Below are positions 21,680 to 62,579 of a stretch of DNA of 64,000 nt, piece after piece. A model generated the notes under the pieces. It was given only the letters and a program-made list of their open reading frames with translations, had not been told where the DNA came from and did not search any database. The stretch is from Candidatus Magasanikiibacteriota bacterium (GTDB lineage: Bacteria > Patescibacteriota > Patescibacteriia > Magasanikbacterales > GWA2-37-8). Both the position numbers and the translations under genes were made by a program. The first letter of the stretch is position 1. Each line of letters starts with the position of its first letter. Where the stretch lies: contig JAGOQR010000001.1 of assembly GCA_017991415.1 (NCBI GenBank), positions 212,490 through 276,489 on the forward strand, read 5' to 3'.

Positions 21680-23017
21680 TTATATAAAAAATAGATAGAT
21701 AGCGCTACTAAAAATAATGACCAGCGCAGAAATAAAAAATTTAAAAGCAAACTGTTTTGTGCCCTGCAAATAAGAATACACTGTTTTACTAATTAAATTG
21801 GTAGCATTTACTAAAATAAAAGTAATAAATGCAAATTCAAAAGTAATGCTATGCCCAGCCATATCAGCTAAATTTACTAGAATTGCATCAAGCCCAGCCA
21901 GCGATGCAATTACAGAACTAATGACAAACCCTGATTTACCAAAGACTAATAATGATACCTTTGTAATGATTTTTACTGCAATTAAAATGCCTGCAAACTT
22001 GAGCGCAGGCATTAGAGAAAATATTTTTGTTGGTTTTACTTCTTGGCTTGGCGATTCATCTGACTCCTTTTTCTTTAAAAGAACTAGAGCAATAAACCCC
22101 GCCACTAAAATCATCAGCAAAATGCTCGGAGCAATCGAAACAAGCCATTTCGGATTTAATGGACCTACCAATAAAAATATTTGCAAAAAACTGGCTAGGT
22201 TAGCAAGTAGCGCTGCCCCAACTAGATGATTGGCAAAAGAAGAATGCTTACTTTTTTGAGCAAGCGACTGAGTTGCAGAAGTAGAAGAAACAAACCCTGC
22301 AATAAAACTAGTAAGAGCAAACCCTTTTTTATTACCAATAATTTTTCCTAAAATATATCCAAATACATCAATGCCTGTAATAAGAACAACGATAAACCAA
22401 ACTTTACGTGGATTAATGAGTTCCAAAGCACTAAACTGTCCCATTTCGACACCTATACCATTTAGAATAGCTGGCAAAACTGGAAGATCAGAAAGTTTAT
22501 AAGCAACATCAGGCAGAAACGGTAAAACAACTAAAGCAATAACTGCATAACTAATAAAAGACTGTAACTCTTCTCGAGAAATACCAGCAATTAATTGACT
22601 GGTCTTGGATTTTACCGATAAGACAAGCATGAGAATAACAAAAACTGCAACAATTATCTGCAACGGAATAATATCGAGCACCAACAATAAGCCAATTAAA
22701 AAAGTAATAATAACCGAAAGTTCTGTAGTAAGACCGAAATCTTTGGTTACAGAGACACCAGATATATAGTACGAGATAAGTAGCACTAAGAAACCGCCTG
22801 CAATAAGCAGCGCTAAGGAAGCAAAATTATGTACAAAAAATATACCAACGAGTGCTCCGATGAGAGCAATAAGTGAATACGTACGAATACCGCCCAAGGC
22901 GCTAGGCCCTTGTTTACTACCTTCTCGCTCCAAACCAATGGTTGCTCCCAAAATAATTGCTAATACTAATTTAGAAAATAATCCTGTAAACATGCAATAA
23001 ATGTTATAATTTATCAA
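21680..23017 (-). CDS. MgtC/SapB-family membrane protein with C-terminal DUF4010-like domain
   Basis: 445 aa. N-terminal MgtC signature LAIILGATIGLEREGSKQGPSALGGIRTYSLIALIGA. Polytopic. Confidence 0.6.
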   Translation of the reverse strand: MINYNIYCMFTGLFSKLVLAIILGATIGLEREGSKQGPSALGGIRTYSLIALIGALVGIFFVHNFASLALLIAGGFLVLLISYYISGVSVTKDFGLTTELSVIITFLIGLLLVLDIIPLQIIVAVFVILMLVLSVKSKTSQLIAGISREELQSFISYAVIALVVLPFLPDVAYKLSDLPVLPAILNGIGVEMGQFSALELINPRKVWFIVVLITGIDVFGYILGKIIGNKKGFALTSFIAGFVSSTSATQSLAQKSKHSSFANHLVGAALLANLASFLQIFLLVGPLNPKWLVSIAPSILLMILVAGFIALVLLKKKESDESPSQEVKPTKIFSLMPALKFAGILIAVKIITKVSLLVFGKSGFVISSVIASLAGLDAILVNLADMAGHSITFEFAFITFILVNATNLISKTVYSYLQGTKQFAFKFFISALVIIFSSAIYLFFI

Positions 23018-23059
23018 TCTATTTTATATAAAAAAAATTTTACTGTCCAGGCTATAATA

Positions 23060-23092
23060 AAAATCACTTCGTACAATGTACGAAGTGATTTT
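23060..23092 (-). terminator. palindromic hairpin terminator (AAAATCACTTCGTACA/TGTACGAAGTGATTTT)
   Basis: 16-bp perfect inverted repeat with a T-rich stretch after it on the minus strand. Downstream of the island B gene. Confidence 0.55.
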
Positions 23093-23103
23093 ATATTTGG
23101 GAT

Positions 23104-23162
23104 TCTCCAGAGCGCTTCTGGGGCCAATTATTTTTGGCACAAGAAGCGCAAACTCTGGAGAA
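23104..23162. repeat. long imperfect inverted repeat (TTCTCCAGAGCGCTTCT ... AGAAGCGCaaaCTCTGGAGAA)
   Basis: About 18-bp stem with a 3-nt bulge and 21-nt loop, directly 3' of the high-GC gene. Possible terminator or recombination-site remnant. Confidence 0.4.
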
Positions 23163-23205
23163 TTTCTATTTCTCAAAGAGCGCGCTTACTGCTTAGCAAC
23201 CTTGA

Positions 23206-23847
23206 TCAGGCAGCCTTCTTGGAAGCGTTCTCCGACTCGCTGTTGAGGAGCTCGAGGATCGAGGCGAACTGCGACTCGCCGAGGCTGCCGCTCTTCCACT
23301 TGTTCTGGAGGAGCTGACCCACCGTCTGCTGCTGCCCCTTGGATCCGGTGCGGCATCGGAGGGCCTTGCCATCCGAGAGGTGGAACACCTCCGCGTTGCG
23401 GGGGCTGCCGTCCTTCTTGAGGACCAGAACCACCTTGATCACGCCGCACTGCCTGGCGAAGGTCCGCATGGACGCGAAATCCGGGGACCGAGCGGGCTTG
23501 ACGACCGAGGGGTTCGGCGACAGCGGCACGGGGCTGCTGGGGATCTTGACCTTGTTGCTCTCGACCACGATCTTGGGGTCGAACATGCGGAGCTTGGAGC
23601 CCTGGAGCTGGTTGTAGGCCCAGCGCGACACGCCGGGCATCCAGTTCTTGCACTGCTCGATGAGGATCGCCTCGCGCGAACCCGCGAACTCAACCGACTC
23701 GAAGCGGTTGTTGTGATCCACCCGGAACAGGCGCTCCACTCCCTTGAAGTACACGTAGGTGCCTCGAGACGAGGTGCAGGACTGACCGAGGTGGCGAGCG
23801 GGCAAGTTGTTCGTACGCTGCTTGGCGTGAACGAGAATCTTCTTCAT
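23206..23847 (-). CDS. hypothetical protein encoded by high-GC island B (foreign composition)
   Basis: 213 aa starting MKKILVHAKQRTNNLPARHLGQ.... ATG at 23847 with a perfect SD AAGGAG 6 nt upstream. GC-rich codons (GCC/CTC/GAG/CGC) in an AT-rich genome. The longer 268-aa ORF in the track runs through the leader and is unlikely to be the real N-terminus. No confident family match. Confidence 0.5.
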   Translation of the reverse strand: MKKILVHAKQRTNNLPARHLGQSCTSSRGTYVYFKGVERLFRVDHNNRFESVEFAGSREAILIEQCKNWMPGVSRWAYNQLQGSKLRMFDPKIVVESNKVKIPSSPVPLSPNPSVVKPARSPDFASMRTFARQCGVIKVVLVLKKDGSPRNAEVFHLSDGKALRCRTGSKGQQQTVGQLLQNKWKSGSLGESQFASILELLNSESENASKKAA

Positions 23848-24015
23848 CGTGATCTCCTTGGAACGAAACGTGGGCGGCGATCCCATAACAGGATCACCAG
23901 AAATGGTGCAGTAGTTTCTCTCTGATTTTGATGCCCAAAAAAGACAACAAAAACAGAGAGAAACAACGCGTATCTTTGAATTGTAAAGAAATTGTTGCCT
24001 AAAACGCAACAAAAC

Positions 24016-43989: not shown

Positions 43990-44050
43990 ATAACAATATC
44001 ATACATGGTAAATGAAAACAAAATCTAATTATAAAAATAAGACTTGTTTT

Positions 44051-44090
44051 ATCGCTCCGCTGTCTAGACAAAATTAGAACTGATTTTATT
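44051..44090. repeat. degenerate copy of the intergenic repeat (ATCGCTCCGCTGTCTAGACAAAATTAGAACTGATTTT)
   Basis: Shares GCTCCG...TTAGAACT with the consensus. Immediately upstream of the island C promoter. Confidence 0.35.
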
Positions 44091-44150
44091 CACAATAGAT
44101 ATGATATAAACTTTATTATCTAAAAAACGCCGCTTGCCCAACACATTACA

Positions 44151-44179
44151 TTGACAGTCCGTTCTTTTTATGCTACACT
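44151..44179 (+). promoter_or_regulatory. consensus sigma-70 promoter TTGACA-N17-TACACT
   Basis: TTGACA at 44151-44156, 17-nt spacer, TACACT at 44174-44179. About 115-nt leader. SD GGAGAG 6 nt before the ATG at 44293. Confidence 0.5.
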
Positions 44180-44292
44180 CATCGGCTATATTGGTTCAGG
44201 TTCTATATCGATGTCTGTGGCGAATACCACGGAAATCGGTAGGGGTCTGACCCCTAACTACTCGACCACACATCAACATCGGAGAGATCGTC

Positions 44293-44850
44293 ATGGTGAA
44301 TACCTGCCGCAGCTTCGGCTGCATCCTGCTGGCCCTGGTCATCCTTGGTGGCTGCGGCTCGACCGACAAGCCGACCCCAATCTGCGCCCTCATCAGCGTC
44401 AACCCCAACACGCCGATGGGTAGCCAGATCGGACCCGGCGGCACGTGGGATCCGAAGGGAGAGGCCCAGACGGTCCTAGCCTTCACAATGTTCAGGGTGG
44501 ACGGCGAGGGCTGCCAAACGGCAACTTTCACCGGTCTACCCATGAGGGTTGACCCGAACACAAGCCAGTTCGTGATCGGCCGAAACTTCAGACTCGTCAG
44601 CGAACTGAATGGCCGCCTCGTCGATATCTCGGTCGGCACAATCATGAGCGACGGGAAACTCAACGTGAAACTCCAAACGAGAGAAAATCTCGAAAAAGGC
44701 AGCCGCTACTTTCAACTGCACCTGGACACGAGCAGCGCGCAACGTGGCGACAAGCTCGCTATCATCAGTGGCGCCGTCGAGTACGAGATCAGCGGGAAGA
44801 AGTTCACTTCGTACCAGCTGTGGTACGCGCCGCCACCGATCGAATACTGA
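44293..44850 (+). CDS. lipoprotein of unknown function encoded by high-GC island C (foreign composition)
   Basis: 185 aa. Signal peptide plus lipobox LVILGG|CGS. About 60% GC with GC3-rich codons. No recognisable domain. Confidence 0.5.
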   Translation: MVNTCRSFGCILLALVILGGCGSTDKPTPICALISVNPNTPMGSQIGPGGTWDPKGEAQTVLAFTMFRVDGEGCQTATFTGLPMRVDPNTSQFVIGRNFRLVSELNGRLVDISVGTIMSDGKLNVKLQTRENLEKGSRYFQLHLDTSSAQRGDKLAIISGAVEYEISGKKFTSYQLWYAPPPIEY

Positions 44851-44870
44851 TCAGACCACAAGGTCAGATC

Positions 44871-44923
44871 AACTGAACGGCTCGGATTCGCTCACGCGAC
44901 CGAGACGGTCAGACTTCATCCGA
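44871..44923 (+). terminator. 15-bp perfect inverted repeat (CTGAACGGCTCGGAT ... ATCCGAGCCGTTCAG) 3' of the island C gene
   Basis: GC-rich stem with a 23-nt loop. No immediate T-run. The AT-rich repeat terminator follows at about 45085-45112. Confidence 0.4.
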
Positions 44924-45029
44924 GCCGTTCAGATAGTGCAGTAATTTCTTGCTACATTATCTGAGCTCGGATGTTATAAATAACATAAATTTAAAAACAA
45001 CCTTTTAACAGATGGTTGTTTTTATTTTA

Positions 45030-45145
45030 AAAAATACAAATAAATAAAATTCGAACATCCAATAAACGTCAATTCAAAAACCCGCATGGTTAGCGGGTTT
45101 TGGATTTATGCTCCGTTTGTGGAACGATGTTAGAAATTTTCTCAA
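45030..45145. repeat. full-length copy of the tRNA-Asn-flank-derived repeat (AAAACCCGCATGGTTAGCGGGTTTT hairpin plus GATTTATGCTCCGTTTGTGGAACGATGTTAGAAATTTT)
   Basis: Hairpin identical to that 3' of tRNA-Asn. The flanks also match the tRNA downstream flank (GAATTGACGTTTATTGG... vs GTATTGACCTTTACAAGG...). Confidence 0.65.
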
Positions 45146-45153
45146 CCCAATTA

Positions 45154-45963
45154 CTAAGAATGTCGCAATATCATTCTTACCTCAGGCATAGTCTTACCTG
45201 AGGGCAGCTTTGCTAAATCTTCCACTGGAGGCTCTCCTATCTTTTCAAAACCCATTTTCTCATAAATAGTAATGGCTTTATCATTGTACGTCACAACATC
45301 CAAAACAATATTCTTATCTGAACCTAACCAGTCTACACCTTGTTTTATCAGTTGTTTGCCTATGCCCCGCCCTTGATATTCTGGCGACACATAGACAGCG
45401 CCAAGCTTGTTTTCTTTATCTCCTTTTTCTAATGAGATAAAGGCAACAACTGCATTTCCATCTTTAACAACTTCAACTCTATTTTCCTGCTCCAAAAGAA
45501 ACTTCTTCCAACGCGCAAGACGTTCAGGGCCAGTAAAATCTTTTGCTAGAATTTCCTCAGTAGTTATGTCATACTCCTTATTTACGTATGTTGCAAGCCA
45601 GCCAGCTTTCTGCACTTCCATAATACCTGGGATATCATCAAAGGCTGCTTCTTGTATCTGGAAATTTCTTTTATTTCTCAATCGCTTGTATGCGAGAACT
45701 ATTAGATTTAGCAGAAGAAAATAGAAAAGTGTGTTACCGAGAAATGGTAATAAATAGAAATGATCTTCTGGAGGACCCAACATACCTACTATTGATGAAC
45801 AACAATTATCCCTTAGAAATATGAACGGAAAACCGCCTTGAGGTATAGAACTATCACCTTGATATGAAGTTTCGTGAGTAAATGAAACGTAGGCTATAAT
45901 TAGAGAGACTACAATTAAACCAAATTGTTTAAAGATTTTTTTCATATTTAAGCATTTACACAC
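45154..45963 (-). CDS. GNAT-family acetyltransferase with N-terminal membrane segment
   Basis: 269 aa. C-terminal GNAT fold (QGRGIGKQLIKQGVDWL...). Confidence 0.6.
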   Translation of the reverse strand: MCKCLNMKKIFKQFGLIVVSLIIAYVSFTHETSYQGDSSIPQGGFPFIFLRDNCCSSIVGMLGPPEDHFYLLPFLGNTLFYFLLLNLIVLAYKRLRNKRNFQIQEAAFDDIPGIMEVQKAGWLATYVNKEYDITTEEILAKDFTGPERLARWKKFLLEQENRVEVVKDGNAVVAFISLEKGDKENKLGAVYVSPEYQGRGIGKQLIKQGVDWLGSDKNIVLDVVTYNDKAITIYEKMGFEKIGEPPVEDLAKLPSGKTMPEVRMILRHS

Positions 45964-45964
45964 T

Positions 45965-46354
45965 TTACCTTGGATACTTTTCTACCAATTCTAAGGTATA
46001 CACTTTTGCCCTAATCGTTTTCTGTTGTGCCTGGAATGCTTTTACCAACCGGTGAACACCATCAATAACCAACCATTTGTCATTTTTGTTTAGTAGAAGA
46101 ATAGGAAATTGCAGGTCTGCCTGCTTAACTCGTTCTTGGTGGATACTACTCCCTTCAACTTTATTAATAACATCCCAAGGAGTTAAGTTCCAATCGTCAG
46201 TGCCGTCTTTTTCCCAAAGCGGTAGATCAAAATTCCAGATTAGTTTATCTATGTCAAAATCTACGATTGGCAAATCTAGCTCTCGTAATTTTACGGTATC
46301 ACAATAAATTTCATAACCAGCGTCAGTGAGGATTTTATATTTTTCATTTATCAT
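45965..46354 (-). CDS. hypothetical protein
   Basis: About 129 aa. The track ORF begins with a non-ATG codon; the first ATG is MINEKYKI. No domain recognised. Confidence 0.3.
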   Translation of the reverse strand: MINEKYKILTDAGYEIYCDTVKLRELDLPIVDFDIDKLIWNFDLPLWEKDGTDDWNLTPWDVINKVEGSSIHQERVKQADLQFPILLLNKNDKWLVIDGVHRLVKAFQAQQKTIRAKVYTLELVEKYPR

Positions 46355-52580: not shown

Positions 52581-53807
52581 ATGAAGAAGAAGATTTTTAT
52601 ATCTATAGTACTTACTGTCTTTGTTTTTCTTGGAATACTTGTTGGCACCTTTTACTACAAAAATCTACGAGGAGCTTGGGTTGCTATACAAGACTCCGAG
52701 GAAGTTACTCAAACTCAAGATAATACCCCAGCTACAAACACTTCTTCATCCCCTGCTCTCACAAAAAATAATACGGGCATACCATTGTCACTACCAGACG
52801 GTACCGCTATAAACACCCTCGCAACAGTACCAGGTGCCAGAGTAATGACAGTAGATAGCATGGGAAATCTATGGGTAAGCCAAACAAAACAAGGGCAGGT
52901 TACACTTGTAGAAATCAAGGAGGGCAAGGCTATTAAAACAACAGCCATATTTAAAAAGCTAAAAAATCCTCATGGTCTTGCATTTAATCCTGATGATCCG
53001 TTTGAACTATATATTGCCGAAGAAAATAAAATCTCTAAAGTACGAATCTACTCAGAAGATACGCTTCACAAAATAATAGATTTACCAAGTGGTGGCAGGC
53101 ATACAACCCGCACCATTGGCTTTGGTCCAGATAAAAGACTATACGTATCTATCGGGTCTTCCTGTGATACATGCAGAGAAAAAGACGAGAGACGAGCCAC
53201 TATCTACTCTATGGAAAAAGATGGTACTGATTTTAAACCGTACGCAAAAGGTTTACGAAACACCGTATTTTTTACTTGGAAAAATAACACTATGTGGGGC
53301 ACAGAAATGGGTCGGGATTTGCTCGGCGATGATTTGCCTCCTGATGAAATAAATATTGTACAAAATGAAAAAAATTATGGTTGGCCTATTTGTTATGGTC
53401 AAAATATTCACGATACAAAATTTGATAAAAATACATATATCCGCAACCCATGCATGACGCCATTTGAAACGCCAAGCCTCTACGATTTGCCAGCACACTC
53501 TGCCCCATTAGGCCTCGCTTTTATCCCAGACTCTGGTTGGCCACAAGATATGCAAGGTGATTTACTCGTTGCGTTTCATGGCTCATGGAACCGAACAACC
53601 CCGACTGGTTATAAAATTGTAAAATTAAAAATAGACTATAGCCAAGAACAACCGAAAGTTGTAGGCATGGAAGATTTTATTTCAGGCTGGTTGGGTACAA
53701 ACAAAAAAACCTACGGACGACCCGTAGATATTTTGACACTACCAAATGGAATTATGTACATTTCCGACGATAAGGCTGGTAAAATCTACGCTGCTGAGCT
53801 TAAATAA
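52581..53807 (+). CDS. PQQ-dependent soluble sugar (glucose/sorbosone) dehydrogenase family protein, beta-propeller
   Basis: 408 aa with N-terminal TM/signal. Motifs of the sGDH/YliI family (...IGFGPDKRLYVSIGSSCDTC..., HGSWNR). Confidence 0.65.
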   Translation: MKKKIFISIVLTVFVFLGILVGTFYYKNLRGAWVAIQDSEEVTQTQDNTPATNTSSSPALTKNNTGIPLSLPDGTAINTLATVPGARVMTVDSMGNLWVSQTKQGQVTLVEIKEGKAIKTTAIFKKLKNPHGLAFNPDDPFELYIAEENKISKVRIYSEDTLHKIIDLPSGGRHTTRTIGFGPDKRLYVSIGSSCDTCREKDERRATIYSMEKDGTDFKPYAKGLRNTVFFTWKNNTMWGTEMGRDLLGDDLPPDEINIVQNEKNYGWPICYGQNIHDTKFDKNTYIRNPCMTPFETPSLYDLPAHSAPLGLAFIPDSGWPQDMQGDLLVAFHGSWNRTTPTGYKIVKLKIDYSQEQPKVVGMEDFISGWLGTNKKTYGRPVDILTLPNGIMYISDDKAGKIYAAELK

Positions 53808-55954: not shown

Positions 55955-58900
55955 TCAGGGTAAAGGTGGCGGTACGCTCCAAAGACTAAGTGGCTGCCAA
56001 AAATAGTCTACATTAACAAAGCTTGATGATGACATATTTTTAAAATCAACAACGAGCTGCGATACATTAGATGGGTTGCTCTCCACACCAATTGCTAAAT
56101 TGTTAAAATTAACAGCATCCAAACTAATTGCACCGCTCGAAGTTTTGACACCACGACTGTTGGCATTTTTTATACTTGCACCAATAGTTGTATTAGAGAC
56201 TGTAAGTATAGAATTATTAGACTGGACAGAGCTCGCTTCGCTATCCCACAAATTAGAATTCGTAATAGTTACATTGGAATCATTAACCAAAATCATCCCA
56301 TTTAAATTTTCGGGTCGACCGTTTAACCTATTTCCTTGCTTAAAATGCACAAAATTGAGCGTGGAAGTTGAGTTGTAAAAACGCAGATTGCCCCAACTTG
56401 CCGTCTCTGGGTATGGAAGAAAATTAACTGGCTTCTGAGCTGTTCCAAATACATTCAAAGAACCTCGTACTTCTATAATACCATATAAGGGCACAAATAT
56501 GGATACACCTGGCTCAATAGTGAGGCGGGCCGAAGAGGAAACAGAAAGCGTATTTAACAAATAATTTTGCGACTCGCCAATAACCACCTCTTGATTAGCA
56601 ACAGTAACATTCTCTAGATATGGCATATTGAGAATATTATTCGCGTAGGTAATACCCGTGAGGGCAGGCCACCTATCCTTAATGTATAATGGTCCGTTAT
56701 TATTAGAAAAATAATTAAATTCTGAATCTGAAATAATAAGCGAACTATTTTCTGACTGGATAGCTCGGTCGCCACCAGCAAAAACTGTATGGGTAATAGT
56801 AGTTGTTGAATCTTTTTCAAAAAAAGTGAGCGGACCATTATTAGAAAAAGAAGAATTGGAAATAGAAAGAATAGAGTTATCTGCTCGTATTGCCTGAGAA
56901 ACAGGGATGGCAAATGGCGGCACTACAAAACCTTTCCCTGCATAACGAAGAACCATATTATTTAAAGTCCCGACAGAACCAGGCTTAAACCAAAATCCCT
57001 GCCAATCCTGAGCCGAAGAAGAAGCTGCAGACCACGGACCAACTACTGTTCTGCTGCCTAATTCTTCGAAAGACACATCTCTACCAGAAGTAAAAATAAC
57101 TTTTTCATCGGCACTACCAGAAACTGTAAGATTGCCTAAAATATCTATCTTAGAATTATTAAAATAACTTTTAATAATTACACCTGGTTCAATAATTAAT
57201 TTTTTACCGACAGGTATAGAATAATATTGTAAAATATACGGAGAATTATTTTTGGTTAAGACTCTAACAGAATCTTCCTGATCAAAATTTAAATTAATAA
57301 ATCCAAAATTCGACCTCTTTGGAGAACCATAAATCTGTCCTCCGTTAAACGTTCGACCATTTTCTCGGAAACCTTGATTGCTCTGCCAATTTTGAGCATC
57401 ACTGCCATTCCCTAGCGGATTGATTCTTTCCATTGTTTTGTATTTAACTGCATCTCCCGCAAACCACCCCGCACTTGCGTTTACCTCATCCGCAACTTCT
57501 CCGTTTGGCTTAATAATCTCTAATTTTTCACCACTATTGCTTAAACTTCCCGTAAAAATAGCGTCGGCAGCTATTTCTTTAATAGTATTATCAGTTGTTC
57601 GCTCAAATAAATAAAAACTACGAGCTGGCACAATTGTAGAATTTACTTTTGACCAATTTAAAACCTTATTGCTTATTATAAGTTTCCAGTCTTTTAGATC
57701 TATAGCATGGTCTGTATTATTATAGAGTTCAAACCACTCATGCGTTGAATAGTCGGCTGAAGTGCCAGACCAAGCAATTTCGTTAATAACTACTTCCCTA
57801 CTCCACTGTATCAAATTTGGAAGAGAAGGTTCGCTCCAAGCAGAAGTATTACCACTTATATCAATGGCTCTAGCTCTAAAATAATATGATTGTCCTCGTG
57901 CACCAGAAAAAGTAAAAACTGTGTTAACGGTACTTGTCGCAATACTTTGCCACTGCATACTATTGGTAGAAAATTCTACTTCAAAATATATGGCCAAAGA
58001 TGATGTATCACTACTAGTTACATGAACTAAAATACTGACAGAGTCTAGCCCTGATTGATTGGTAATACCCAGAATCGGAACTGTCGGTGCCTCAATACCA
58101 GGAACTACTTCCTGGCTACTGGTAGCACTAGCAGGGTTATTTGAATTGACTTCTTGAACTATAGTTGATGATGGCGCAGCGGCTGAAGAAGTGGGCTCTA
58201 CGACCTCTACAGAACCTTCTAGGGTTAATATAGGATATGAGACCATTGGCTCCTCATATGCTTGCTTATTAGCACCTTGGATACCGCCACCATAGACAGC
58301 TTGGCTTGGAGCTGGCTCAAATACAGGATTAATAATTTTTACCCCTAAAACACTTGCCTCCACTGGTATAGAAGTTTGAATATCTACTTTTTTTATTAAT
58401 TTATTTTGCACATTACTATTAACCTGAGAAATTTTAGCAATTTCTACATTAGATATAGGAGAGGCTGCTGGTAATTGAGCAGGCTGATTAAAGTTTTGCC
58501 CCACAGGATTCTCAACCGTTATTTGATTCTGCAAACCTAATCCTACTTTTACAGAATCCAAAACACCATTAAAAAATCCCAACAGACTGGACCCGAGAGA
58601 TTTTTGCCCCTCTGCAATACCAGAGGTAGCAGCAACAATAGTATTGTGCATATCTTTGCAAGTACTTTCTGAATAACTACAGATTTTAATAACACTTCTT
58701 TTTGGAAACTGTTGCAGCGCAACCAAAAAAGAAGTATTACTATCTGAAATAATAGGTTCGAGTGCATCAGGATTTTGTTTGTATTTTTCTACTTCTTGAA
58801 AAAATAAATTAATAACACTGGCTCCTGTTAGCACAGCTTCTGGAAAAAGTTTGTCTCGATAAGAAGGGAGAACAAAATCTGTTTCATTTATAGAATAAAT

Positions 58901-59773
58901 TTCTTTTCTGTTAAAAACAGAATCTTGAGGATTTGCTTTTGCTAAATTAATTTTATTATCACTATCAAACAAAATTTTTAACTCTCCTTTGCTAGTTTTT
59001 ATATAATTAACTTTTAGCAAACTGAGTGCTGGAAAATTAAACTCGGTATTATTAATAGTATCTTCGGAAAAAAAGTTTTTATTTGTATATATAGCCAAAT
59101 CCTTAATTGCCTGACTTACTGAATTTATTCTTTTAAAATTTGCATTATTTTGTAATAAATCTTTGGCAACACGCAAAGCACCTTCATCGGTTTGAACTTT
59201 TGAATATGCTTCATAGGGAGAGCCGGGATCTCCTTCAATTCCAGGATGCGAATCATCCCGAACATGATCGGGCACACTTACATCTTCCACTAAATGAAGT
59301 ACATGACCCAAAGCAATAAATGCTGTTTTTGTATCACCCTCGATATAGGACCTGAGTGCCCTCTGCCAAGTTTGATTACCGTACTGACGACCATATGCTG
59401 ATTGGTATTCCTGGTTAGTTACCCACTTAATTGATGGCAGCGCATGCTTTGGAGCTATATCTCCACCTAGCTGATAGCCCTCCTGCTCCGAAAGATTGCC
59501 CAGATGTTTACCAGACCACCCAACATCATGCACTGGATCGTAGAAATGATTGATCCATCGGGCTGGTCCATCTTCTTCTACAGCACCCTGTTTAAGCCAA
59601 TTTATTTCACTGGATGACAAATTATAGTTTGGATTTAAGTTTTTAGCATTAAAAAATAGAGCCATTTCGTAAGTTAAGGCTGGATGGGTAGAGCGCTGAT
59701 CGTAGGCCCCTACTGGATGTATAAATAGCAACGAAAGAAGAATACTAAAAATCATAACAAAGAAATTTTCCAA
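55955..59773 (-). CDS. giant secreted multidomain protein: N-terminal zinc-dependent phospholipase C/P1-nuclease-like domain, FN3/Ig-like modules, lamin-tail domain, C-terminal right-handed beta-helix repeats
   Basis: 1272 aa with a signal peptide. PLC-like motifs NHFYDPVHDVGW and FIALGHVLHLVEDVSVPDHV (compare B. cereus PLC SHFYDP / LHYLGDVNQPMH). LTD signature VINEIAWSGT...EWFELYNNTDHAIDLKDWKL. C-terminal N/S/T-rich beta-helix repeats. Confidence 0.5.
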   Translation of the reverse strand: MENFFVMIFSILLSLLFIHPVGAYDQRSTHPALTYEMALFFNAKNLNPNYNLSSSEINWLKQGAVEEDGPARWINHFYDPVHDVGWSGKHLGNLSEQEGYQLGGDIAPKHALPSIKWVTNQEYQSAYGRQYGNQTWQRALRSYIEGDTKTAFIALGHVLHLVEDVSVPDHVRDDSHPGIEGDPGSPYEAYSKVQTDEGALRVAKDLLQNNANFKRINSVSQAIKDLAIYTNKNFFSEDTINNTEFNFPALSLLKVNYIKTSKGELKILFDSDNKINLAKANPQDSVFNRKEIYSINETDFVLPSYRDKLFPEAVLTGASVINLFFQEVEKYKQNPDALEPIISDSNTSFLVALQQFPKRSVIKICSYSESTCKDMHNTIVAATSGIAEGQKSLGSSLLGFFNGVLDSVKVGLGLQNQITVENPVGQNFNQPAQLPAASPISNVEIAKISQVNSNVQNKLIKKVDIQTSIPVEASVLGVKIINPVFEPAPSQAVYGGGIQGANKQAYEEPMVSYPILTLEGSVEVVEPTSSAAAPSSTIVQEVNSNNPASATSSQEVVPGIEAPTVPILGITNQSGLDSVSILVHVTSSDTSSLAIYFEVEFSTNSMQWQSIATSTVNTVFTFSGARGQSYYFRARAIDISGNTSAWSEPSLPNLIQWSREVVINEIAWSGTSADYSTHEWFELYNNTDHAIDLKDWKLIISNKVLNWSKVNSTIVPARSFYLFERTTDNTIKEIAADAIFTGSLSNSGEKLEIIKPNGEVADEVNASAGWFAGDAVKYKTMERINPLGNGSDAQNWQSNQGFRENGRTFNGGQIYGSPKRSNFGFINLNFDQEDSVRVLTKNNSPYILQYYSIPVGKKLIIEPGVIIKSYFNNSKIDILGNLTVSGSADEKVIFTSGRDVSFEELGSRTVVGPWSAASSSAQDWQGFWFKPGSVGTLNNMVLRYAGKGFVVPPFAIPVSQAIRADNSILSISNSSFSNNGPLTFFEKDSTTTITHTVFAGGDRAIQSENSSLIISDSEFNYFSNNNGPLYIKDRWPALTGITYANNILNMPYLENVTVANQEVVIGESQNYLLNTLSVSSSARLTIEPGVSIFVPLYGIIEVRGSLNVFGTAQKPVNFLPYPETASWGNLRFYNSTSTLNFVHFKQGNRLNGRPENLNGMILVNDSNVTITNSNLWDSEASSVQSNNSILTVSNTTIGASIKNANSRGVKTSSGAISLDAVNFNNLAIGVESNPSNVSQLVVDFKNMSSSSFVNVDYFWQPLSLWSVPPPLP

Positions 59774-60225: not shown

Positions 60226-60549
60226 AATAAAAAAATTAATTTGCAGCTATTATAAATAAGTTCTAGTAAAATATTTCTAAAAATAAAAACAAAAATCGAC
60301 TGTTATCCACAGTCGATATACACCAGATACGCTTACCAAATAAACAATGAATTATTTTTTCTTTCGAACTTTAACAATAATAAACAGCACAATCAGAAGC
60401 AGCACAAAAGGTATTGCGGGTTGCAGCGAATAAAAAACCTGTTTAGCAGTACTTATAATATAACTGAACATACTGATGATTAGAAATATATTTTTTTATA
60501 AACACATAACCCCTCCGAACAAGGAAGGGTTATCTGTATACGAAAAATT

Positions 60550-60854: not shown

Positions 60855-61715
60855 CTATAAAATAACTCCCTCTCTATTTTCTTCTTCTTTATTTAAAATA
60901 TAGACATCAGCATTATATTCATCATTACCTACAAATTCTGCTTTTTTATTTAAAATTGCCTCCATTGGAAGGCAGGCCATACAACCATCACCATTAGGAC
61001 ATTTAAAACGCTCCAGCTGTCTGGCTAATTTTAATTGTCTGGCAACATCTAAGATTTTTTTATGCGATGATTCGAGATCTGGTAATTCTTTGGCAGTTAA
61101 CTCGTTACTGTTGTCTAAATACCAATAACTAGCTTTGGAGGCATTATACTTTTGACAATTTTGAACTAACAGCCTATATATTGGAAGCTGCAAAGACTCT
61201 CCGTCTTCTTCGGTCTTACCAGTTTTAAAATCAATAATATGAACACTCTCTGTTTCGGGCAGATACTCAAGCCAATCTATTTTTCCACACAAAATAATAT
61301 TATCTTCTTCTGATAACCAAAATTGCGGTAAATCCATTTGGATTTTTACCGCCAAACCAGAAATAGGTCCTGGATTATTCATTACCCGTCGGATCATATC
61401 CTGACCACGAGCCTTATATTTATATTCTGTTTCTTCACTTGTAAAACCGCCTTTTTTACCGGTAACTTTTGTCCAGGATTTATCAAATTTATCCATCAAA
61501 GAATCTGAAAACCGTACATTTTTTGGCAATACTGATAATGACTCCAAAACCTCATGCACTGTTTGACCCAAAGCCAAGGCAGGACTCATGATTTTTACCT
61601 TATGATTTGTTTTAGGGTCTCGATATACATTTTTAAGATAGTAAGCGCGCGGACAACGCAAAAAATCACTGATCGAAGTATGGGAAACCCAGGTGGCAGT
61701 ATACTTGTCCGACAT
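60855..61715 (-). CDS. PD-(D/E)XK nuclease superfamily protein, Cas4/AddB-nuclease-like with Cys cluster (standalone)
   Basis: 286 aa. N-terminal Cys in ...DFLRCPRAYYLK... Catalytic D...E.K region (IIDFKTGK). C-terminal CPNGDGCMAC, giving the 1+3 Cys arrangement of Cas4-family FeS nucleases. No CRISPR array or cas genes nearby. Confidence 0.55.
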   Translation of the reverse strand: MSDKYTATWVSHTSISDFLRCPRAYYLKNVYRDPKTNHKVKIMSPALALGQTVHEVLESLSVLPKNVRFSDSLMDKFDKSWTKVTGKKGGFTSEETEYKYKARGQDMIRRVMNNPGPISGLAVKIQMDLPQFWLSEEDNIILCGKIDWLEYLPETESVHIIDFKTGKTEEDGESLQLPIYRLLVQNCQKYNASKASYWYLDNSNELTAKELPDLESSHKKILDVARQLKLARQLERFKCPNGDGCMACLPMEAILNKKAEFVGNDEYNADVYILNKEEENREGVIL

Positions 61716-61957: not shown

Positions 61958-62305
61958 TTATAAATCTGTATATTTTGTATGTTTGCCTTTTGCTTTTTCA
62001 ACTGGATATTTTTTAGCTGTTTTTTCTATTTTACGTTGTGCTGCTTGAAACAAGTCTATGTTAAAATCATTGGCCATTAATAATAAAAAATATAATACAT
62101 CAGCAAGTTCATCTCCGATTTCTTCTGAATGATTTTCTATATGCTGCTGCAACTCTTCTTTGTTCTTCCATAAAAAATGTTCTGCCACCTCGCCCGCTTC
62201 TAAAGTTAACCCTATAGCCAAATCTTTTGGCGTATGAAACTGTTTCCAATCTCTGGCATTTCTAAATTCTAAAATCTTATCTGTAAGCTCTTTTAATTCT
62301 GACAT
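61958..62305 (-). CDS. MazG-like nucleotide pyrophosphohydrolase domain protein
   Basis: About 115 aa from MSELKELTDKILEFRNARDW.... EXXE-type motifs (LEAGEVAEHF; EIGDELADVLYF). The upstream extension in the track is unlikely. Confidence 0.55.
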   Translation of the reverse strand: MSELKELTDKILEFRNARDWKQFHTPKDLAIGLTLEAGEVAEHFLWKNKEELQQHIENHSEEIGDELADVLYFLLLMANDFNIDLFQAAQRKIEKTAKKYPVEKAKGKHTKYTDL

Positions 62306-62306
62306 A

Positions 62307-62579
62307 CTAGTCTTTTTTTCCCCATCTCCATTTAAGTTTCTCACCTGTAAAATAACAAGTAACAAGTAAAATAATAGTTGATAAAATAAATGGTAAAACA
62401 AAATTAATTAATGCATCACTCGCAGAGTGCGATAACTTGTCTATATCTCTAAATATGTAAATATTAAAAATAATATAAACTAACAATACTAACCAACCTT
62501 GCCAACTACTTGGCAGCCCCCAGCCCAAACCATACGTTTTTGCTCTAAACCAATATTTTTTTGGCTGTTCCATATACAT
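62307..62579 (-). CDS. small hypothetical membrane protein
   Basis: 90 aa, two TM. Stops 2 nt before the MazG-like start. Confidence 0.3.
   Translation of the reverse strand: MYMEQPKKYWFRAKTYGLGWGLPSSWQGWLVLLVYIIFNIYIFRDIDKLSHSASDALINFVLPFILSTIILLVTCYFTGEKLKWRWGKKD

Follow-up and report, generated by a model that had tools for sequence, protein, structure and literature searches.

Patescibacteria, very small bacteria that depend on hosts, cannot make nucleotides or lipids, and a central open question is how they acquire them from a host or from the environment. A locus in Candidatus Magasanikiibacteriota poses it in the form of a single protein: on what would a large secreted product with a phosphoesterase-like head, carried on a lamin-tail domain and a beta-helix, be expected to act? 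The window analysed here is the whole 64,000-nucleotide stretch of contig JAGOQR010000001.1 (assembly GCA_017991415.1) between positions 212,490 and 276,489, and the protein is encoded by a long minus-strand open reading frame (ORF) within it (Table 1). The original prediction read this ORF from a TTG codon as a secreted protein of 1272 residues, in which a head resembling zinc phospholipase C (PLC) and P1 nuclease comes before a lamin-tail domain and a beta-helix; the ORF and all three domain assignments are borne out by our analysis, to which we add a small upstream partner gene that the prediction did not contain. We consider the large protein very probably to be a secreted and active three-zinc phosphoesterase, equipped with lamin-tail and beta-helix modules and served by a dedicated membrane partner. 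Extracellular nucleic acid or nucleotides are the substrate that we favour, tentatively.

The case for activity starts from the metal ligands. MAFFT and hidden Markov model (HMM) alignments with the Bacillus cereus PLC sequence 1ah7, used as the reference and identical to the PDB entry, place H14, D55, H69, H118, D122, H128 and E146 of PLC against H30, D68, H76, H160, D164, H170 and E188 of the large protein, that is, seven of the nine zinc ligands of PLC. The original prediction, whose quoted N-terminal motifs are present (NHFYDPVHDVGW at aa 75–86 and FIALGHVLHLVEDVSVPDHV at aa 152–171), hinged on such ligands being found in an alignment; all seven align and, together with H176, D174 and R172, are 97–100% conserved over about 104–119 family sequences. 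Conservation of this degree across sequences of ~30% identity argues for an active three-zinc phosphodiesterase. In the alignment A1, built from a homologue search with aa 1–413 whose 76 hits almost all bear a Patescibacteria or Parcubacteria label, the invariant residues are H30, E67, D68, R72, H76, F77, Y78, G85, W117, G156, H157, H160, L161, D164, V167, P168, H170, D174, H176 and E188. Between H170 and E188 runs a loop that contains the invariant H176, accompanied by D174 and R172; the PLC residue aligned with H176 is Asn134. From its position in the alignments we infer that His176 is the likely substitute for PLC His142 and would supply the missing third-zinc ligand. Two invariant arginines, R72 and R172, flank the ligands, and PLC has no arginine at either place. 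Zinc binding by these residues is predicted, with Tyr24 at the predicted mature N-terminus a candidate further ligand; its spacing of 6 from His30 is nearer to that of P1 (5) than to that of PLC (13).

To which branch of this superfamily does the head belong? Taken as a single sequence, the large protein scores 12.1 bits (E 0.2) with PF00882 (Zn_dep_PLPC), short of the gathering cut-off of 26.8, and finds Listeria PLC as a phmmer match in the PDB at E 0.48. Searched singly, 19 of 55 relatives match PF00882 at E ≤ 0.01 (best 3e-7), and the A1 profile reaches B. cereus PLC at E 0.003, with hhalign assigning the pair 94% probability and E 1e-7. Comparison of the head with P1 nuclease by hhalign was essentially negative (2.6% probability over 19 columns), PF02265 (S1/P1 nuclease) gave no Pfam match for the large protein or the relatives searched, and an NCBIfam search returned nothing for the head. 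The AlphaFold head model made from A1 has a mean predicted local distance difference test score (pLDDT) of 81, with aa 30–340 mostly >90. Structure comparison of this model gave scores of 20.1 with Clostridium absonum alpha-toxin, 19.6 with B. cereus PLC (208 residues, 2.6 Å), 18.5 with Listeria PlcB, 13.8 with S1 nuclease, 12.0 with SmNuc1 and 9.3 with Endonuclease 2, while a Foldseek search of the PDB with the head returned Zn-PLC chains exclusively and no S1/P1 nuclease among them. As modelled, the head has the all-alpha PLC/P1 fold, which is also common to S1/P1 nucleases, and the domain is of the PLC type rather than the P1 type. The head falls below the Pfam threshold for PLC and lacks His142; it is best described as a distinct sister family in the PLC/S1-P1/Het-C superfamily, outside both PF00882 and PF02265.

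In PLC the amine and the carbonyl of the mature N-terminal residue, Trp1, bind zinc, and Tyr24 would be its analogue. The true start of the large ORF is ambiguous, the choice lying between a start-like TTG codon at 59773, which yields the N-terminus MENFFVM..., and an ATG six codons later at 59755, which forms ATGA with the stop codon of the upstream gene and is no less plausible. Both give a hydrophobic, signal-like N-terminus ending in V-G-A|Y-D-Q, with a 12-residue Kyte-Doolittle mean of 2.9 in the core, so that secretion of the large protein, as originally proposed, agrees with its N-terminus and appears probable. Across the family, position –1 of the predicted cleavage site is A, S, G or C, and position +1 is Tyr in 101 of 104 sequences; the small residue and the tyrosine that follows it fit a signal-peptidase cut that would leave an aromatic residue at the N-terminus, as Trp1 is in PLC and P1. 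An exact-sequence look-up found no existing record of the large protein.

The second component of the system is the partner gene, whose homologues stand upstream on the same strand in 79 of 84 related loci, at ≤120 nt in 76 of the 84; of the five loci that lack it, four extend <300 nt upstream. In 24 of the 84 the two genes overlap, 15 of these by one and the same 21-nt register. In the window, the partner's final codons TGG AAA ATT TCT TTG TTA TGA are read by the large ORF as TTG GAA AAT TTC TTT GTT ATG. The 'MEN' with which many homologues begin arises when the conserved W-K-I codons of the partner (xTGGAAAAT) are read in the –1 frame, and we rejected it as a feature of the signal peptide; among the other ORFs of the window none has a start of this type. 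A transmembrane-like N-terminal segment is present in all 59 aligned partner members. PF12870 (DUF4878) is matched by 34 of the 59 at E ≤ 1 (best 1.4e-6), the window's own copy not being among them; Pfam gave nothing useful on that copy, and the partner's PDB profile matches, to NTF2 designs and the NTF2-like N-domain of PBP5, are weak (E 0.1–0.2). No partner stands upstream of a ComEA-HhH-headed protein that carries the same lamin-tail/beta-helix module (L086), and one is present upstream of PLC-like proteins that carry a staphylococcal nuclease (SNase) domain, strongly at L087 and weakly at L085. The partner thus tracks the enzyme head, which it presumably binds. The two genes are adjacent, co-oriented and co-conserved, as are those of toxin–immunity pairs; as to delivery, the one signal seen is a Sec-type signal peptide. 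We note that one locus (L017:4235-5940) has three tandem copies of the putatively NTF2-like partner gene ahead of the large gene.

Behind the head, the chain continues through a linker of ~145 residues and an FN3-like domain, neither of which was in the original prediction, into the lamin-tail domain and the beta-helix. An AlphaFold model of aa 561–1272, made from a second homologue search over the same residues (alignment A2), has a pLDDT of 95 and a predicted template modelling score of 0.87. The lamin-tail domain matches PF00932 above its gathering score, its modelled strands at aa 661–765 have pLDDT >90, and the quoted signature INEIAWSGT...EWFELYNNTDHAIDLKDWKL lies within aa 662–701. What had been described as N/S/T-rich repeats of ~22 residues corresponds in the model to beta-helix coils of about 21–26 residues, in a region with 13% Ser and 11% Asn. 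The best structural resemblance of the beta-helix is to phage tailspikes, capsule depolymerases, alginate epimerase and pectate lyases, and conservation in A2 peaks where the lamin-tail domain meets the beta-helix. In its stacked three-stranded coils the model conforms to the pectate-lyase-like type of right-handed parallel beta-helix (PF13229/PF05048).

The family is widespread. A species-level scan, with one genome per GTDB species, gave at least 505 loci, and an HMM search of 1.84 billion representatives gave 7326 proteins at E ≤ 1e-3, 4660 of them at E ≤ 1e-10. Named records among the listed loci come from Magasanik-, Azam-, Lipton-, Yanofsky-, Sung-, Jorgensen-, Wolfe-, Yonath- and Lloydbacteria and from Paceibacterota. 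The head is joined to one to three lamin-tail domains in 114 of 118 full-length representatives and to a beta-helix of this type in about 40 (about a third); many of the rest carry PKD domains or, at the C-terminus, ~600 aa of unrecognised sequence. Between head and lamin-tail domain, six of the 118 carry an SNase domain, found also in P0007, P0236 and the P0136 locus. The same lamin-tail/beta-helix module is preceded by ComEA-type DNA-binding HhH heads in P0133 and P0149, and by M23 peptidoglycan peptidase heads in P0137 and P0156. Relatives are named in databases either 'hypothetical' or 'lamin tail domain-containing protein', and our literature searches found no paper describing the family or the gene pair.

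Several records call for separate mention. At L085:3253-7300 the gene calls separate a 258-aa PLC-like domain from an SNase–lamin-tail–beta-helix protein (P0136), with overlap between the two; a frameshift or a fault in the assembly has probably divided what is one gene. Distant proteins of ~610–700 aa (P0060–P0076, E 1e-4 to 1e-10), one of them from Nitrospiraceae, share the N-terminal domain and differ in N-terminus and length; they may be a non-Patescibacteria branch of the family. Many TPA_asm records of metagenome-assembled genomes (for example L005–L013), titled 'uncultured Gammaproteobacteria' or 'Candidatus Saccharibacteria', hold the locus at 45–69% identity under titles that look generic or wrong, and the records of L050 (Omnitrophota) and L068 (Nanoarchaeota) may be mis-binned.

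Let us now consider how such a pair might work. Sec export of the large protein and signal-peptide cleavage would expose Tyr24, and the free N-terminus, together with H30, D68, H76, H160, D164, H170, H176 and E188, would then form a three-zinc phosphodiesterase site on a PLC-type scaffold. Through the flexible linker the head would be joined to the FN3-like, lamin-tail and tailspike-like beta-helix modules, which would attach the enzyme to a polymer or surface or hold it in place there, as a stalked enzyme perhaps used by an epibiont. The small co-translated partner would sit in the cell's own membrane with its NTF2-like domain outside, where it most likely binds the head to tether or restrain it. 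In the scenario that we favour, the head would act as an S1/P1-style nuclease or 3'-nucleotidase on a PLC-like frame, providing nucleosides and phosphate to a nucleotide-auxotrophic cell. Staphylococcal nuclease makes 3'-phosphorylated products, and in the relatives that carry it these could be dephosphorylated by such a 3'-nucleotidase head.

We favour nucleic acid as the substrate because the lamin-tail fusion is near-obligate and SNase domains are inserted in relatives, because of the HhH-headed sister proteins and of R72 and R172 next to the ligands, and because Patescibacteria are nucleotide auxotrophs that rely on secreted nucleases. Lamin-tail domains are a recurrent fusion partner of secreted nucleases: an Izemoplasma nuclease has one (PMC8289736), as do enzymes of the DNase I family (PMC4486849), deletion of this domain from ExeM lowers its DNase activity in vitro (PMC6085458), and secreted nucleases are common in Patescibacteria, where they have been proposed to serve nucleobase salvage (PMC11495043). 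Several observations pull the other way. The head lies much nearer to phospholipases than to nucleases, in sequence as in structure; PLC His142, four residues before Glu146, has no aligned His, G184 being found there at a variable position; and the head and lamin-tail domain are both net acidic, offering no electrostatic hint of DNA binding. An extracytoplasmic inhibitor or tether makes more sense for an enzyme able to damage its producer's membrane than for a nuclease, and fusion to SNase could simply reflect a multi-enzyme digestive protein.

These objections lead to the alternative that survives best, a true phospholipase C that cuts head groups off host or environmental phospholipids, breaching the host membrane or harvesting diacylglycerol for a cell that makes no lipids of its own, with the partner as an immunity protein for the producer's own membrane. 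The clear PLC affinity of the fold speaks for it, and a partner that is extracytoplasmic, membrane-anchored and translationally coupled would suit membrane self-protection, the periplasmic immunity proteins of lipase effectors offering a comparison; immunity proteins with the NTF2 fold are known as well (PMC3482391). We nevertheless place a phospholipase, though a close rival, somewhat behind an enzyme of nucleic acids: the large protein has a deletion at the site of PLC Tyr56, a choline-pocket residue, and PLC Glu4 is without a counterpart in the alignment, a membrane-binding PLAT/C2 domain such as that of alpha-toxin is absent, and the lamin-tail fusion, the SNase insertions and the HhH-headed sisters point instead to nucleic acid.

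The head might alternatively be a phosphodiesterase for teichoic acid, phosphodiester-linked capsule or another envelope glycopolymer of host or self, the beta-helix binding polysaccharide in the manner of phage depolymerases. The proteins to which the beta-helix is structurally nearest and the M23 heads on the same module would be in line with this; however, the beta-helix is not tied to the head, being confined to the minority of the family described above, and we know of no precedent in the PLC/P1 superfamily for an envelope-glycopolymer substrate, so we regard this reading as improbable. A variant on the lipid side, would have the head strip host phospholipids of their head groups and the partner, with the hydrophobic pocket that NTF2-like folds often form, receive the diacylglycerol and pass it to the symbiont membrane; it too seems to us improbable, and if true would explain how Patescibacteria that make no lipids obtain them. 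Finally, a protein that is mainly an adhesin or host-recognition fibre, its PLC-like head a non-catalytic binding module, would fit the tailspike-like C-terminus and the proposal that large surface proteins bearing adhesion domains, FN3-like ones included, are host-interaction factors of Patescibacteria (PMC13059738), but metal ligands so strictly kept at such low overall identity are the signature of a working active site and make it very improbable.

Table 1. Features of the large gene and its partner gene, in window coordinates
Feature	Position	Strand	Details and basis
Large ORF	55955..59773	–	1272 aa from TTG 59773; 1266 aa from ATG 59755
Predicted Sec signal peptide, aa 1–23	59705..59773	–	Hydrophobic core and small –1 residue; predicted cut VGA|Y leaves Tyr24 first; family conservation at –1 and +1
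Zn-phospholipase-C-like all-alpha catalytic domain, aa 24–340	58754..59704	–	
Ligand segment 1	59684..59704	–	Tyr24 (predicted mature N-terminus, Trp1 analogue) to His30 (= PLC His14); alignment, family conservation
Ligand segment 2	59534..59575	–	E67-D68 (= PLC Asp55), invariant R72, H76-F-Y-D-P (= PLC His69 in SHFYDP); alignments, conservation
Ligand segment 3	59210..59308	–	G156-H157..H160 (= His118)..D164 (= Asp122)..P168-x-H170 (= His128), R172, D174, H176, Y187-E188 (= Glu146)
Low-confidence helical tail (aa 341–420) and V/S/P/A-rich linker (aa 421–565, ~145 aa)	58079..58753	–	pLDDT 35–60; composition
FN3/Ig-like beta-sandwich, aa 566–650	57824..58078	–	Six strands with pLDDT >90; weak Pfam/NCBIfam sandwich-domain matches
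Lamin-tail domain, aa 659–765	57479..57799	–	PF00932 E 5.7e-10, 40 bits vs cut-off 34.3; modelled beta-sandwich
Right-handed parallel beta-helix, aa ~795–1262	55988..57391	–	Three-stranded coils stacked in model
Partner gene, 157 aa	59752..60225	–	Predicted N-terminal membrane anchor and putative DUF4878/NTF2-like ectodomain (aa ~45–157)
Two-gene overlap	59752..59773	–	Partner ...W-K-I-S-L-L-stop read in other frame as (M)ENFFVM; ATGA stop/start at 59752–59755

Just upstream of the pair lie genes for a PD-(D/E)XK/Cas4-like nuclease (60855–61715, minus strand) and a MazG-like pyrophosphohydrolase (61958–62401, minus strand), separated from it by terminator-like hairpins at 60295–60317 and 60506–60533. 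The position of these hairpins upstream of the partner gene is only suggestive of an operon boundary, and a scan for promoters and terminators did no better than on shuffled sequence (20 promoter-like matches vs 20.2 expected; 5 terminator-like vs 3.5). FtsEX, tRNA-Gln, the PD-(D/E)XK nuclease and MazG were considered as functional context and rejected, their neighbourhood not being conserved in L001 or L003. A signal-anchored beta-propeller protein resembling glucose/sorbosone dehydrogenases (PF07995, E 1.5e-13) is encoded nearby at 52581–53807 on the plus strand. Elsewhere in the window the G+C content rises to 0.454 at 22001–24000 and 0.431 at 44001–46000 where the background is about 0.36; a search of these two intervals for rRNA and other Rfam families gave none.

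The enzyme and its partner form a unit that is among the more widespread Patescibacteria surface systems, with catalytic residues intact, and the third zinc site of the family would be a rearranged one for the PLC/P1 superfamily. Both the enzyme head and the ectodomain of the partner are small and soluble-looking, and could be assayed on DNA, RNA, nucleotides and lipids.

Among known systems, the closest comparison is with the Zn-PLC enzymes (PF00882), namely B. cereus PC-PLC (1ah7), Listeria PlcB (8cqm) and the N-domain of clostridial alpha-toxin. SHFYDP-type, H..D.....H and Y-E motifs are common to both. The large protein would be secreted, as these enzymes are, with Tyr as a candidate ligand at the mature N-terminus where PLC has Trp. 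His142 is missing, and the invariant His176 of the present family stands 12 residues before the Glu; the loop between the Asp and His ligands has 8 residues vs 14, which deletes Tyr56; R72, R172, D174 and W117 are extra invariant residues; and there is an additional insertion of ~50 aa together with a beta-hairpin subdomain. With the S1/P1 nucleases and the trypanosomatid surface 3'-nucleotidase/nuclease (3'NT/NU) (PF02265; 1ak0, 5fb9, 8qjl, 3w52) it shares a first His close behind the N-terminal aromatic residue, at a spacing of 6 here and 5 in P1, and a basic residue soon after the Asp ligand, R72 here and R48 in P1. Leishmania 3'NT/NU would offer a parallel for a surface enzyme in an organism auxotrophic for nucleotides. 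The sequence relationship to this group is, however, limited to the H..D.....H motif, and the H-x-x-x-D pair is not shared.

Two further comparisons concern the divergence of the head and the company that it keeps. Het-C/Tox-HET-C proteins likewise form a secreted branch that has diverged, with a predicted fold and active site of the PLC/S1-P1 kind, and for them the choice between lipase and nuclease was left undecided by the authors (PMC3482391). The large protein differs from them in having no Pfam Het-C match, and Het-C proteins are found in other taxa and in other delivery systems, namely the type VI secretion system (T6SS) and PVC. Shewanella ExeM and its relatives resemble it as secreted or surface hydrolases that carry a lamin-tail domain; in ExeM the catalytic domain is of the EEP fold and is accompanied by OB folds, whereas here a PLC-like catalytic domain comes first and the lamin-tail domain follows.

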